From positions 418 through 64,417 of the forward strand of contig DATGFS010000003.1 in NCBI GenBank assembly GCA_035308905.1: DNA of 64,000 bases. The letters are read 5' to 3'. The translations under genes were made by a program, and so were the position numbers. Shown here one piece after another: positions 50,003 to 59,121 of the stretch. This stretch comes from a bacterium. Lineage in GTDB: Bacteria > Sysuimicrobiota > Sysuimicrobiia > Sysuimicrobiales > Segetimicrobiaceae. Position 1 is the stretch's first letter. Each line of letters opens with the position of its first letter. Under the pieces are notes generated by a model. The model was not told the DNA's origin, did not search any database, and saw only the letters and a list, made by a program, of their open reading frames with translations.

Positions 50003-51961
50003 TCAGCCGGTGCTCGACGAAACGGCGTTAGCCCCACAGAATGTATTCAGACGTAGCCGCAGTTCCGGGGCCAACGTGTCTAGGGCTGTCCGTTCGATCA
50101 CAAAGACCGGCCGCACTTGTCTCACCCAACGGCGCGCCGCCCATTTCCGGACGACCGACTGCGCCTTATCGCCTCCACCGAGCAGTCGAAATACCAGCGC
50201 AGGCTGGACACGCATTTCGATGGGCCGGTCACCGCGACACACCACACGAGGTAAGACGCCGCCGCCCGAACTGCTCAGCACGGCCTCGATGAAGGCGCCG
50301 AAATCGTCATCCGGTGCCGCCTTGCCGCGAACGGCCGACCGAACGTCAGCGGCCGGCGCCGCTGACGTCGCCGCCTGCGGCGCGCTCGCGACAGTAGAGT
50401 CTGTGGACCGCTCCACCGATATAACCGTGAAAGGATCGGGACGCGGAGTGCTTTGATCCCGTCTCCGAACGTCCCGCGTGCGGCACCTTAGATGGTGCTT
50501 GACCGCGATCTCCACGGTGGACGGCGCCCTGTCCGAAACGATACGGGCGTACATCGGCCGGATATGGACTTGCGGACACCATACGCGTACCGGCGACGAT
50601 CCGGAACACCGGACAATGATCTCGTCTTCCATGACACCGATGCCTTGAAGGCTCTCGGGCCGCCTGAGGGGGACCTCGACCATTCGTGTCTGCTCGGTCT
50701 CCTGCCGGCCCATTCCACTCCAACCTCGGCTTCGCGATACTTGAGCGATCGTGGTCGTTCCAAGCGCACGGCTGAGCCGTTCGGCGTCTGGGTCGGCCAG
50801 CGACGGAAAGTAGATCTTGGTCACGAAATTGGCCGCGATCGCCGCCCACCCGGCGGCGCCGTAAACAGACTCGCCCTGCGCTTCGCTCTGCACTGTGGCG
50901 ACGATCGCGACCTCACGACTGCGAAAGGTCGCAAGGAGATCGGCCAAACCGGGCAGCGGCCCCCATGCCGGCAATTCCTCAAGCAGGTACACGACCGGAA
51001 CTGATTCGTCTCGGCCGCGAGGGCGCAACATCTCCGCCGCAAGCATCCGCATCAACAACTGGCACAGGCTCCGAAGGCGGGGCAGAGCGGCCTGCGGCAC
51101 ACCGACGAGCAGAAGCGTCGGCTCGCGGCGCAGCCGCGCCAACGCGATTTCATCCCACGACCGCGTGCCGCGCGGATCCGCCGTTGCCAGTGATACCCGC
51201 TCGTCACTCCAGGACTCCAGGCGGGCGGCGATTCCTTGCAAGATGCCGGCCCGGTCCTTCGGCAGCATCGCGCCGTACGCGCCAAGATGCTCGGCGATGA
51301 CCGCGGCGCGCGGATGTCCATGGACATACCCGGCCACGGCGTCCGGACCCGCCCCTGCCAGCGCCCGCAGCCGGGCCACCGACCGAGCCCCGCCGTCGGT
51401 CGCAAGCGCCCAGGTCAGCGCCGCGCAAACGTGGCGCTCGGCCCCAGCCCAATAACCGTAATCCGTGCTCTCGCTACTCTCGTCGGGAAAGAGATACGCC
51501 GCGAACCCGTATGCGTCGCCGAGCGACCGGCACGCCGCGAGCGGATTCCATCGCAGCGAGGAGCCGTCCAGCGGCGCGAACACAAGGACGTCGCGTCCCT
51601 GACGCCACCATTCGGAGGCTGCGCCCGCCAGGCTGTCGCGCTCACCATACTTGAGATCGAACGCCACGACGGAGACGCCGGCGCTTGCCGCGTCCAGCAA
51701 CACCGGCAGAGTCAGCGCGGTCGTCTTGTGGGCGCCCGTCAGGCCTGTGATCAGGACGTGCCGCGCGAGATCCGCGTTCGGCAGGCAAAGCCGGGGCCCC
51801 CAAAGGCACGGCGGAGGCGCTGCACGCGAAATCCGCCGCCACAAGGCCAGCGCCGGCGGCCAGGGCGGCGAATGGCCCAACGGAAACCATGCCCCAGAGG
51901 ACGGCCGCAGCCGGCGGCGCAGCTCTCTTCGCCCCGCGAACCGGGCGCCTGCCGGCGTCAT
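50003..51961 (-). CDS. Type IV secretion coupling protein (VirD4/TraG/TraD-like ATPase)
   Basis: Walker A HVLITGLTGAHKTTALTLPVLL. Region ...VYLLEELPAWGPLPGLADLLATFRSREVAIVATVQSEAQ... fits the T4CP C-terminal domain. Probable start MTPAGARFAG... at 51961, overlapping the upstream stop by 1 nt (TGATG). No N-terminal TM segment is evident. Confidence 0.75.
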   Translation of the reverse strand: MTPAGARFAGRRELRRRLRPSSGAWFPLGHSPPWPPALALWRRISRAAPPPCLWGPRLCLPNADLARHVLITGLTGAHKTTALTLPVLLDAASAGVSVVAFDLKYGERDSLAGAASEWWRQGRDVLVFAPLDGSSLRWNPLAACRSLGDAYGFAAYLFPDESSESTDYGYWAGAERHVCAALTWALATDGGARSVARLRALAGAGPDAVAGYVHGHPRAAVIAEHLGAYGAMLPKDRAGILQGIAARLESWSDERVSLATADPRGTRSWDEIALARLRREPTLLLVGVPQAALPRLRSLCQLLMRMLAAEMLRPRGRDESVPVVYLLEELPAWGPLPGLADLLATFRSREVAIVATVQSEAQGESVYGAAGWAAIAANFVTKIYFPSLADPDAERLSRALGTTTIAQVSRSRGWSGMGRQETEQTRMVEVPLRRPESLQGIGVMEDEIIVRCSGSSPVRVWCPQVHIRPMYARIVSDRAPSTVEIAVKHHLRCRTRDVRRRDQSTPRPDPFTVISVERSTDSTVASAPQAATSAAPAADVRSAVRGKAAPDDDFGAFIEAVLSSSGGGVLPRVVCRGDRPIEMRVQPALVFRLLGGGDKAQSVVRKWAARRWVRQVRPVFVIERTALDTLAPELRLRLNTFCGANAVSSSTG

Positions 51962-52548
51962 CAGCGGACGAACGGAATGCCGTAGCCTTCGGGCACTGCC
52001 CGAAACGTCACACCGCACCGCCACCCTTGCCACGTGATGAAGCCAAAAACGGCGTATCCGCGACGTTCGTACGTTCCGAGATCGGTGATTATCGGAACGA
52101 GCGCCTTCGCCGCTTCAAGGATCGAATCACCGGGTGTACGTGAGCCGGCCGCCAGCCGCCGGATCTCGGCGAGATCATTCGAATCGTCACGCGGCGCCGG
52201 CCAAATCGTCTCCGCGAAGCGGGTTCCGATCTCACGAGTACGCCCGATATCCGGAACGGCGGCCGCGTTTCCTGGTGCCCCCGGCGTCCCGGTGACAAGA
52301 ACCATGACCGCCCCCGGCCCGGGACACCCGGTCCAGAAGTACGGCACGAACGGATAGACGTCAACGTCCACAGCCGGCTGCGGCCAATGTCGGACGACCT
52401 CGACGCGCCCCGCCGCCGCGTCGATAAAGGACAGCACCGCGCCGGTGAAGTCCGCCGGGCTGTCTTGCCCCCGCCCCGGCATCGGTCCCGCGTAGACCGC
52501 GCAGAGCGCAACCGCGACCGCGAGGACCACCCTCCCCGGGAAGGTCAT
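51961..52548 (-). CDS. Secreted hypothetical protein (signal peptide) within T4SS cluster
   Basis: Probable start MTFPGRVVLAVAVALCAVYAGP (signal peptide). About 195 aa, no recognisable motif. The ORF-track N-terminal extension is Arg-rich and implausible. Confidence 0.45.
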   Translation of the reverse strand: MTFPGRVVLAVAVALCAVYAGPMPGRGQDSPADFTGAVLSFIDAAAGRVEVVRHWPQPAVDVDVYPFVPYFWTGCPGPGAVMVLVTGTPGAPGNAAAVPDIGRTREIGTRFAETIWPAPRDDSNDLAEIRRLAAGSRTPGDSILEAAKALVPIITDLGTYERRGYAVFGFITWQGWRCGVTFRAVPEGYGIPFVR

Positions 52549-52577
52549 CCGCGGCCGGACGCACCGTTCGTGGCCGG

Positions 52578-57791: not shown

Positions 57792-57792
57792 T

Positions 57793-59121
57793 TCAGTGCG
57801 CCTCTGTCACCAAAATGATGCACCGGGTCCCGGCCGGGATCTCAAGTGTTTCGACGACCGCCCCTGACGTCTGAGGGTTCAACGTATCGGCAAGGCGCGA
57901 AGCGGCATATGTCCATCCCGGTGCCGCCCCGCCGACAGACACCTGGGTCGCACCGTCGGCCACGGTAACCTGGGCCGCACGCGCCAGCGCCTGCAGGTAG
58001 TCCGAAACGGCCAGCACCACGGCGCGGATGGCCGACGCCGCCGCAGCCCGGCGGCGAATGACGACCCGGCCGGACAGCCCATCCGACAGCGAGTCCGGGT
58101 CAAGCGCGACGCCGCTCACAGGTCCGCCGGCCGTCCGCGATCCGCCGGACCCGCCACCGGCGTCGCGGTCCGCGGTCTGGAATGAAATGTGCACCCGTCC
58201 GTCTGGTTCGGCCTCGGCGTGACCGAGCCAAGACGACCCGTCCACTCCCTCCGCGATGACGGGTACCGGAGGCACGCCGGCCGCCACGACGACGCCGGTC
58301 GCAAGCCGCGCCGCGAGCTGATCGCCGACTTTCCGTGCACCGGCTCGCATGCCGCGAACTTCTTCGGTCGTGCTCGCGCGCAATGTGGGTGCCGCCCCGG
58401 TGTCGCCCCCCGCATTACGGGCATATACCACCGGAGAGCGCGGCGCGGCGTCGACGTTGGGTGACGGGATGCCGCTCGACTCGGGCATACGGTTGAAAAC
58501 GATCGACGGTGAAAGTGCTCTCTCGACGGCGCCTGTTCCCGAGAGAACAGACGGAAGCGGCAGAACGGGCACAGGCGGCAGCTGCGAAAGCGAGCGCATT
58601 GCGGGGGCGGGCGGCACAGCCGGCAGCGCCGTCCGCCCCCGCATCCACAGCAGTGTGCCCCGCACGGTGCCCGGAGCAACCGCGGGCGTTGCTTCGTGCG
58701 TGGAGCTGCCGGCCCGGTGCAGCGCGCCGACCGGCGCCGGCGAGATCGACGTGCGGTGGGAACGGGTCAGCAGCGAGGACGCGCCGGCGGCTACCAGCAG
58801 GACGGCGGCAAGGCCGAGCGGCACCGTCGCCGCGACGCGCCGTTTTGCGAGGAGCCGGTCACCGGCGTCGCTTTCGTACTCACCCCATCCGAACAGCGCG
58901 CGACGCAGAACCGTGCGTCGGTGACGGCGGTGCAATACCCGCTCGCTGTCGAGCCGGATGTCCGACCCCGAGAGTTGATCCAGCACTTCGGAATAGAGGT
59001 CAGGCGCCGCCTCGGCGAGGCGCGCCAAGACCTGGGGCACCGCTGCCGGCGAGAGGTCTACGGAATCGCCCAGAACCGCGCGAATGCGGGAGGCGGATTC
59101 GGGAGCGAGCACGATTTCCAC
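57793..59121 (-). CDS. Bitopic membrane protein of unknown function, first gene of the T4SS operon
   Basis: About 100-aa cytoplasmic N-terminus, one TM (ATVPLGLAAVLLVAAGASSLL), and a Pro/Ala/Ser-rich periplasmic region. Ends ...LEIPAGTRCIILVTEAH. Confidence 0.4.
   Translation of the reverse strand: MEIVLAPESASRIRAVLGDSVDLSPAAVPQVLARLAEAAPDLYSEVLDQLSGSDIRLDSERVLHRRHRRTVLRRALFGWGEYESDAGDRLLAKRRVAATVPLGLAAVLLVAAGASSLLTRSHRTSISPAPVGALHRAGSSTHEATPAVAPGTVRGTLLWMRGRTALPAVPPAPAMRSLSQLPPVPVLPLPSVLSGTGAVERALSPSIVFNRMPESSGIPSPNVDAAPRSPVVYARNAGGDTGAAPTLRASTTEEVRGMRAGARKVGDQLAARLATGVVVAAGVPPVPVIAEGVDGSSWLGHAEAEPDGRVHISFQTADRDAGGGSGGSRTAGGPVSGVALDPDSLSDGLSGRVVIRRRAAAASAIRAVVLAVSDYLQALARAAQVTVADGATQVSVGGAAPGWTYAASRLADTLNPQTSGAVVETLEIPAGTRCIILVTEAH

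Follow-up and report, generated by a model that had tools for sequence, protein, structure and literature searches.

A reduced type IV secretion system, probably chromosomally fixed and vertically inherited, in a family-level clade of Sysuimicrobiota

We analyzed a cluster of type IV secretion system (T4SS) genes in a stretch of DNA from a bacterium of the Segetimicrobiaceae (phylum Sysuimicrobiota, or CSP1-3), taken from a 171-kb contig (DATGFS010000003.1, assembly GCA_035308905.1, positions 418 to 64,417). The whole stretch that was analyzed, 64,000 nucleotides (64 kb) with a G+C content of about 70%, is called the window below, and coordinates refer to it unless another locus is named. The cluster consists of eight open reading frames (ORFs) arranged head to tail on the minus strand from 50003 to 59121 (9.1 kb), at the coordinates first described for it, in the order VirB10-like protein, VirB2 pilin, VirB3-position protein, VirB4, an Ala/Gln-rich (A/Q-rich) protein, VirB6, a 195-aa protein and VirD4. 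Close homologues of its VirB4 number 60, at 69-93% identity, and every one comes from uncultured metagenome-assembled genomes (MAGs). Related loci carry our own labels, L followed by a number; one of them, L006 (ANGP1 NP_3), is the type genome of Ca. Segetimicrobium genomatis, assigned by GTDB to family NP-7 of p__CSP1-3 (Sysuimicrobiota).

The genes are tightly packed. The stop codon of the first gene and the start codon of the pilin gene are joined as TGA-A-ATG, the VirB3-position gene overlaps the VirB4 gene by 8 nt (TTGTATGA), the VirB4 and A/Q-rich genes overlap by 10 nt, and the 195-aa gene meets the VirD4 gene in TGATG, an overlap of 1 nt. An earlier, sequence-only reading of this DNA had described a single minus-strand operon with these 8-nt, 10-nt and 1-nt overlaps, and all of them were read directly in the sequence. 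The junctions also fix two starts: the 10-nt overlap with VirB4 indicates that the A/Q-rich gene begins at its methionine 15 (M15) at 54671, giving 346 aa, and the TGATG junction places the VirD4 start at 51961, giving 652 aa. An AGGAGG sequence lies 7 nt ahead of the GTG start of the first gene at 59121. A candidate sigma-70-like promoter, TTGACG-16-TATAGT on the minus strand at 59166..59193, lies about 45 nt upstream of this gene. It is the sole consensus match in 16.4 kb, where 1.3 would be expected by chance, so that only its position speaks for it, and, should the divergent LonC-like ORF start at 59153, it falls within the 5' end of this ORF.

Two of the eight proteins are ATPases with clear family matches. 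The VirB4/TraC-type ATPase (830 aa, 54662..57154) matched PF19044 (E 2e-20) and PF11130 (E 2.2e-6), and its Walker A (GESGGGKT) and Walker B (VVSDETW) motifs are intact. It also matched TIGR02746, the F-type TraC family, over residues 60-811 (E 4.7e-53, 180 bits, under the cut-off of that family), and TIGR00929 over its full length, again under the equivalog cut-off. The VirD4-type coupling protein (652 aa, 50003..51961) matched PF02534 (3.8e-29, 102 bits), PF10412 (1.3e-25, 90 bits) and PF12696 (2.3e-20, 73 bits), all above their cut-offs, and scored 100.7 bits against NF045973 (CD1115). A failure of hidden Markov model (HMM) searches to support VirB4 and VirD4 had been named beforehand as grounds for giving up the assignment; both proteins are upheld by these families.

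The coupling protein has several unusual features. As the sequence-only reading had noted, it lacks the usual N-terminal transmembrane (TM) anchor: a TM scan found no such segment in the window protein, and the hydrophobic anchor is also missing in L001, with several orthologues of other species retaining a hydrophobic N-terminal stretch. Its Walker A motif reads GLTGAHKTT, with His replacing the canonical Gly before Lys, both in the window and in most close orthologues (L001-L017 alignment); GxGKT is kept in L005, L007, L008, L013 and L016. In addition, the protein ends in a conserved extra domain of about 100 aa (RRWxxLRWVRRVRP...) that matches no family.

The 100-aa product of 57489..57791 is a VirB2/TrbC-type pilin, with a PF04956 match above the cut-off (E 2.4e-10, 40.9 bits against 27.9), a signal peptide and two hydrophobic helices (TM 44-62 and 77-95), in agreement with its first description as VirB2-like. 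It is strongly constrained: the mature pilin is 81-97% identical across the clade, where LonC is only about 65-70% identical, and its ratio of nonsynonymous to synonymous substitution (dN/dS) against L001 is 0.011. Between the pilin and VirB4 genes lies the gene of a small membrane protein of 107 aa (57147..57470) with a hydrophobic N-terminal hairpin. Its earlier assignment as VirB3-like agrees with its size, position and topology only, and homologues hold the same position in clusters of Thermus and Trueperaceae, but it finds no support from HMM, PDB or profile comparisons: Pfam and NCBIfam gave no match, a PDB-sequence search with the family profile was empty, and comparison of the family with F-plasmid TraL by hhalign, tried as a test of VirB3/TraL similarity, returned a probability of 1.3% and was rejected. 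For this reason we call it the VirB3/TraL-position protein. The polytopic protein of 347 aa encoded at 52578..53621 has six hydrophobic segments. Taken singly it matched PF04610 (TrbL) at E 0.003 and 17.8 bits, under the cut-off of 25.9; nine of 11 orthologues or relatives matched this family, with a best E of 3.1e-8. The VirB6/TrbL-type assignment made earlier is thus supported at the family level, as judged from these profile matches.

The first gene of the operon (57793..59121, 442 aa) was identified through its predicted structure. An AlphaFold2 (AF2) model built on a 62-sequence alignment of database homologues begins with a conserved helical cytoplasmic domain (1-80), modelled with confidence, and one TM helix (96-122). 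A disordered, Pro-rich linker (123-265) leads to a C-terminal beta-barrel (266-441), again confidently modelled, into which two helices (358-383, 403-413) are inserted. The predicted local distance difference test (pLDDT) values of the C-terminal domain are mostly 82-96 and fall around the loop of the two-helix insert. When the model was compared with the PDB by Foldseek, the top seven matches were all VirB10-family C-terminal domains (E 9.5e-6 to 1.9e-3, probability 1.00, TM-score normalised to the target 0.39-0.51), from Legionella DotG, Xanthomonas VirB10, R388 TrwE, F TraB, pKM101 TraF and H. pylori CagY, and no significant PDB match was found beyond this family. The protein therefore combines, in its model, the VirB10/TrbI barrel with its helical antenna insert and a bitopic topology with a Pro-rich periplasmic linker. 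A PF03743 (TrbI) sequence match above threshold was not obtained: weak matches occurred in six of the 62 family members (best E 0.0076), the window protein itself gave no Pfam, NCBIfam or PDB-sequence match, and a PDB search with the family profile was also empty. Since no sequence match to TrbI rises above threshold, the homology is structural and remote; on the modelled fold, we regard the first gene as encoding a remote homologue of VirB10 whose bitopic, Pro-rich architecture is canonical.

The remaining two genes encode exported proteins. The A/Q-rich helical protein (346 aa, 53631..54671) stands in the VirB5/TrbJ position. Its signal peptide is followed by a Pro-rich stretch, a helical domain with the motif LPSSRAGIELLVAG and a C-terminal PLY. 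It was found in all related loci and, distantly, in L012 and L013. Neither Pfam (ten members tested) nor NCBIfam gave a match, and a search of the PDB with the family profile returned designed helical bundles only. Sequence similarity to VirB5/TrbJ was not found, and its position in the operon is the sole evidence for a VirB5-like role. The 195-aa protein (51961..52548; 206 aa with the NCBI start at 52581) is secreted or anchored and lies in the VirB7/VirB8 position. A hydrophobic helix stands at its N-terminus and a VPEGYGIPFVR motif at its C-terminus; the protein further has a beta-sandwich with a helical insert, and two Cys that are invariant. Its family is lineage-restricted: 1.84 billion proteins include only 23 members of it. 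Searched directly against Pfam, NCBIfam and PDB sequences, the protein gave no match, and its fold did not correspond to those of the VirB8 (NTF2-like) and VirB9 families. Three proteins of the operon had initially been held to lack any recognisable family; this stands for the A/Q-rich and 195-aa proteins but not for the 442-aa protein, the structural VirB10 homologue.

Genes for mobility were not found around the cluster. Among the window genes scanned with Pfam, which cover most of the 64 kb (a few ORFs, including 11361-12248 and those in 18.5-20.5 kb, lay outside the scan), there is no integrase, relaxase, VirB8, VirB9 or VirB11, as the sequence-only reading had stated. Furthermore, tblastn with the VirB9-like, VirB11-like and relaxase-like proteins of relatives detected none in the whole 64 kb, and tblastn comparison of the flanks of related loci turned up no integrase or relaxase. 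The cluster is not bracketed by direct repeats, att-like repeats and a convincing tRNA-linked boundary are absent, and core or housekeeping genes abut both of its ends directly.

The surroundings of the cluster are the same in related genomes. A profile of VirB4 recovered 19 genome loci, and the synteny was extended with further metagenome contigs. The order LonC, VirB10 to VirD4 with the A/Q-rich and 195-aa genes in their places, DEAH helicase and GH57/DUF3536 gene recurs in about 12 species, and in more than 20 contigs of different species, from related MAGs or metagenomes, the T4SS cluster is flanked by the same LonC-like and DEAH helicase genes. Pairwise VirB4 distances track those of LonC (r = 0.94; 45 pairs, 10 genomes) and of the helicase (r = 0.95) and are of the same magnitude. 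This conservation of position and co-divergence with housekeeping neighbours support one of the earlier proposals, a domesticated T4SS; syntenic conservation across the clade without mobility signatures, which had been named as what would refute mobility, is what we observed. We also scanned metagenomes with the helicase as seed, which gave 55 informative contigs. Immediately upstream of helicase orthologues of at least 69% identity, T4SS genes were present in 15 of 15, and upstream of those at 49-65% identity in none of 40. An 'empty site', with LonC adjoining the helicase, was looked for among the distant relatives and none was found. These comparisons are most simply explained if the operon was inserted once at this site, in the common ancestor of a single clade, and has been inherited vertically since.

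The genes have been maintained, all eight ORFs being intact both in the window and in most relatives, and dN/dS against the closest relative is 0.01-0.24 for all eight genes (0.18 for VirD4), at near-saturated dS, values that indicate purifying selection on every gene of the operon. G+C content at third codon positions (GC3) is 0.75-0.82 in the operon and 0.86-0.95 in its flanks. We considered this as a sign of recent horizontal transfer and rejected it: the same offset is seen in every orthologous locus, and the lower GC3 is therefore a property of the operon. When the operon was set against its flanks (window, L001 and L006), the apparent dS of the T4SS genes (1.2-1.7) was about twice that of LonC and the helicase (0.63-0.72) in the same genome pair, a gap that probably reflects a much stronger constraint on GC3 and codon usage in the housekeeping flanks.

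Together, these observations suggest that the cluster is a chromosomally fixed, vertically inherited and reduced T4SS of one family-level clade of Sysuimicrobiota, a reading that we consider probable. Several points weigh against it. Retention is not universal in the clade, and three lineages depart from it. In L025 (5275-6888, contig Ga0209580_10000018) a 5'-truncated VirD4 frame without a start codon stands upstream of a helicase that is 86% identical, with no other T4SS gene within 7 kb, and this remnant looks like a deletion scar. L030 has no VirD4 and keeps other T4SS genes, namely VirB4, the A/Q-rich gene, VirB6 and the 195-aa gene, in its 7-kb upstream flank. In L022/L023 (4300-9660, GCA_035307765.1, on a 410-kb contig) LonC, the VirB10 gene and the pilin gene in its 5' half have given way to a block of minus-strand genes that includes a Prim-Pol gene and may be a mobile-element insertion into the T4SS locus; the remaining six genes are intact. 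The function of VirD4 in coupling may be altered by the loss of its anchor and the His in its Walker A motif. A relaxase, VirB11-like or VirB9-like gene could lie elsewhere in the genome, of which the window covers 64 kb of one 171-kb contig. Finally, an outer-membrane role for the VirB10 barrel is an assumption, as it depends on the envelope type of the phylum; a literature search on the envelope type of CSP1-3 found nothing.

If the cluster is such a fixed and reduced T4SS, the VirB3-position protein, VirB4 and VirB6, together with the TM segment and N-terminal domain of the VirB10 homologue, would form an inner-membrane platform, where VirB4 would drive the extraction and polymerisation of the pilin. 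The Pro-rich linker would carry the VirB10 homologue across the periplasm, and the barrel with its helical insert would by itself make up the distal pore. The two exported proteins might fill the structural places of VirB5 and of VirB7/8/9, and VirD4 would recruit and deliver a cytoplasmic substrate. As to the nature of this substrate, our leading guess, held tentatively, is DNA exchanged between cells of the same lineage. We rank it first because of the conjugative ancestry of VirB4 and VirD4, the relaxase-like genes of relatives, the near-invariant pilin and the precedents of the archaeal Ced/Ted systems and of Patescibacteria. Effector delivery follows, ahead of ComB-like uptake or a machine limited to the pilus.

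Other explanations of the cluster were weighed against the same observations. The sequence-only reading had suggested an integrative/conjugative element (ICE). On this explanation the cluster would be the mating-pair-formation module of an integrative/conjugative or mobilisable element, either still mobile or recently immobilised, with its relaxase, integrase and att sites outside the window. The conjugative ancestry of VirB4, VirD4 and VirB2 would fit such an origin, as would the T4SS clusters of Thermus and Deinococcus plasmids, its nearest relatives on plasmids, an operon GC3 under that of its flanks and a tRNA-Glu 4 kb away. However, it is already largely refuted: one site is occupied in more than 20 contigs of different species, with co-divergence, the GC3 offset is found in all orthologous loci, and neither an association with integrase or relaxase, in the scanned window genes or by tblastn in related flanks, nor att or other bracketing repeats, a variable insertion site or a host-incongruent distribution was found, with housekeeping genes standing at both ends. 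We thus consider an ICE module very improbable and do not retain the earlier suggestion. A non-functional relic of an ancient element in slow decay appears less probable still. The decay in L025, L030 and L022/L023, the absence of several canonical components and an operon codon usage weaker than that of the neighbours would accord with it; against this stand the eight intact ORFs in the window and most relatives, the dN/dS of 0.01-0.24, a pilin more conserved than the housekeeping neighbours and the preservation of the overlapping start/stop junctions.

Two further explanations concern a working machine with another cargo. In one, the system would deliver protein effectors or toxins, as the bacteria-killing chromosomal X-T4SS does, with VirD4 recognising effectors encoded elsewhere. 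A chromosomal, vertically inherited system with no relaxase nearby has here kept its coupling protein, whose conserved extra C-terminal domain could bind substrates, and contact-dependent antagonism is of benefit to free-living soil bacteria. Yet no effector/immunity-like pairs were seen in or beside the locus in the genomes examined, the VirB7, VirB8, VirB9, VirB11 and VirB1 that X-T4SSs retain are absent here, the TraC-like VirB4 belongs to a conjugative lineage, and L030 has lost VirD4 while keeping the VirB4, A/Q-rich, VirB6 and 195-aa genes; we consider effector delivery unlikely. Somewhat less likely in our estimation is a machine for DNA uptake, or one limited to the pilus, along the lines of H. 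pylori ComB or Ced/Ted import, with the pilus and the VirB4/B6/B10 channel as its functional core and VirD4 as an accessory. The pilin, VirB3, VirB4 and VirB6 proteins are the most constrained of the system, with VirD4 among the less constrained; L030 has lost VirD4, which in the window is anchorless and variant in its P-loop, ComB likewise does without VirB11 and relaxase, and a DNA helicase is the conserved downstream neighbour. On the other hand, VirD4 is retained under purifying selection in most lineages (dN/dS 0.18) and ComB has none, the adjacency of the helicase is equally explained by a single insertion beside a resident gene, and no ComEC- or DprA-type genes were seen nearby. More doubtful than either is a specific version of DNA exchange in which the system would be the bacterial counterpart of archaeal Ced/Ted: a captured conjugation machine for relaxase-independent donation or import of chromosomal DNA, with the DEAH/MZB helicase processing the DNA, and with a distal channel in which VirB10 and the two new small proteins replace the VirB7/VirB9/VirB10 core.

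The genes next to the operon complete the description of the locus. Between VirD4 and the helicase, on the same strand, lies the gene of a 169-aa coiled-coil protein (49455..49964, GC3 0.66), with six tandem repeats of 33 nt (11 aa; family D1) and a C-terminal TM segment. It is confined to the window and its closest relatives L001, L024 and L054, a variable accessory gene whose product is probably not a core T4SS component. The DEAH-box helicase (47065..49377, minus strand) scored 905 bits on TIGR03817 against a cut-off of 874 and contains DEAD, Helicase_C, WHD_HRQ1 and MZB domains. The TIGR03817 family takes its name from the Tad-type secretion genes near which it stands in Actinobacteria. 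The gene is co-oriented with the operon, directly downstream of it and adjacent to it in most loci, and it is a conserved neighbour and, by its distribution, a resident gene older than the T4SS insertion. We considered this adjacency as evidence for a DNA cargo and downgraded it: the same helicase occurs without the T4SS in 40 of 40 more distant relatives, and the adjacency of both helicase and LonC is explained by one insertion. On the other side, and divergent from the operon, the LonC-like protease (59153-61858) has AAA_32, LonB lid and Lon_C domains and a Pro-rich PPPGPP tail. Its start is at 59153 or 59234, and the start codons of LonC and of the operon are only about 31-60 bp apart, in the window and in relatives, so that the promoters of both must overlap coding sequence; co-regulation of the LonC-like gene and the operon is possible.

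Some other observations were made in the window. Convergent with LonC, within 61866-63080, is the gene of a 203-aa protein with a weak match to IrrE/ImmA-like M78 peptidases (E 3e-4), conserved in L002, L003 and L011; beside it are a strong hairpin of terminator type (62676-62699, minus strand), for which no gene to be terminated is obvious, a low-GC stretch and the tRNA-Glu gene (63003-63080). Five aminotransferase paralogues of the DegT/DnrJ/EryC1 type, an unusually high number, are concentrated within 2073-18549 (2073-3323, 3215-4372, 6024-7289, 7282-8457 and 15943-17139), interleaved with an amidase, hydantoinases A and B, an amidohydrolase and a peptide-type ABC transporter. At 21925-23286, in a stretch of lower G+C (about 0.67), a protein with an S-layer homology (SLH) domain also contains a BsuPI (protease-inhibitor) domain, and it adjoins a 494-aa ORF without a Pfam match (20444-21928); SLH proteins are relevant to the phylum's envelope type. 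The remaining genes of the window are those of an ordinary chromosome and encode arginyl-tRNA synthetase, acetyl-CoA carboxylase subunits, glycogen-related proteins, transporters and a sigma factor.

The interest of the system lies in its size and its setting. Eight genes in 9.1 kb, kept under purifying selection across a family-level divergence, are a natural experiment in T4SS minimisation, and a gene set in which VirB7, B8, B9 and B11 are not recognisable is informative on which parts of the core complex can be dispensed with or replaced. It would also add a bacterial case of conjugation machinery turned into a host-owned organelle, beside those of Patescibacteria and archaeal Ced/Ted. CSP1-3/Sysuimicrobiota are reported to reach up to 22.6% relative abundance in soils (PMC11604079). 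We found no mention of a secretion or conjugation system in two phylum-wide genomic studies of this group, and accordingly a conserved pilus and secretion machine with a near-invariant pilin is an unreported trait of an ecologically important soil group.

Outside the clade, the closest annotated VirB4 relatives (31-34% identity) belong to Thermus, Deinococcus and other Deinococcota plasmids. The clusters of Thermus sp. NEB1569 plasmid NZ_CP092444.1 and of the Trueperaceae MAG OZ243913.1 have the same core order of pilin, VirB3-position protein, VirB4, uncharacterised protein, VirB6-like protein and VirD4, and a VirB10-barrel protein lies nearby, as here. Beyond this core they encode a lytic transglycosylase, a replication-relaxation protein and a SpoIIIAA/VirB11-like ATPase, all undetectable here, and no homologue of the 195-aa protein was detected in either cluster. 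The Thermus cluster is on a plasmid and that of Trueperaceae is in a chromosomal island with an insertion sequence (IS) integrase, and the window locus has neither setting. Locus L012 ('Armatimonadetes') is an intermediate relative, with the same gene order and a VirB4 identity of 45-47%. Upstream of its VirB10 lie genes for a ribbon-helix-helix (RHH) protein, for a SpoIIIAA/VirB11-like ATPase and for a weakly CagX/VirB9-like protein that contains a T2SS-T3SS_pil_N domain. Just downstream, L012 has two TadB/TadC-type (T2SSF) genes, so that a T4SS and a Tad pilus locus stand side by side (5034-7420, 17539-19686). The extra genes of L012, Thermus and Trueperaceae are detectable neither in the 64-kb window nor in the flanks of close relatives, and for this reason the window system appears to be a reduced derivative of a T4SS type that is common to several Terrabacteria lineages and also found on mobile elements.

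With the A. tumefaciens VirB, R388 Trw and pKM101 Tra systems, the window system has in common VirB2, VirB3 (by position), VirB4, VirB6, VirB10 and VirD4, the order B2-B3-B4-(B5 position)-B6-(B7/8 position) and the VirB10 fold with its two-helix insert. It differs from them in having no recognisable VirB1, B5, B7, B8, B9 or B11, in a VirB10 gene that stands first in the operon and encodes a conserved cytoplasmic domain of about 95 aa, in B3, B10 and window B6 proteins that score under Pfam thresholds, and in being chromosomal and vertically inherited. ComB of H. pylori is a chromosomal T4SS without relaxase and VirB11 that serves the cell's own purposes. It has VirB7, B8 and B9 but no VirD4, and the window system is the opposite in this respect, so that it is not of the ComB type.

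The cluster had also been compared with the MPF-FATA type of mating-pair-formation (MPF) systems, and this assignment was not sustained. A pilin and a VirB10 homologue are present, VirB4 scores 180 bits on the F-type TraC family against 86 bits on the Firmicutes CD1110 family, and there is no VirB8/TcpC-like protein or wall hydrolase, Pfam having found no TcpC or hydrolase domains. Patescibacteria have a distinct chromosomal T4SS without relaxase, which has been read as co-opted beyond element transfer (PMC12102498); it is related to monoderm MPF-FATA systems, whereas the window system has VirB10 and a TraC-like VirB4. The archaeal Ced/Ted systems are chromosomal, domesticated conjugation machineries with a VirB2-like pilin, a VirB4-like ATPase and a VirB6-like channel and without relaxase, and Ted loci adjoin helicase and repair genes (PMC9905601). 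The window system shares with them the chromosomal, relaxase-less VirB2/B4/B6 core, in functional analogy rather than homology: Ced/Ted have no VirB10 or VirD4, are archaeal and show no detectable sequence relationship to it. Import of chromosomal DNA by Ced/Ted was shown experimentally, whereas for the window system it is a conjecture from the genes alone. Among these systems, the one described here is best described as a member of the T4SS superfamily, a reduced and domesticated new variant related to the Deinococcota-type T4SSs.

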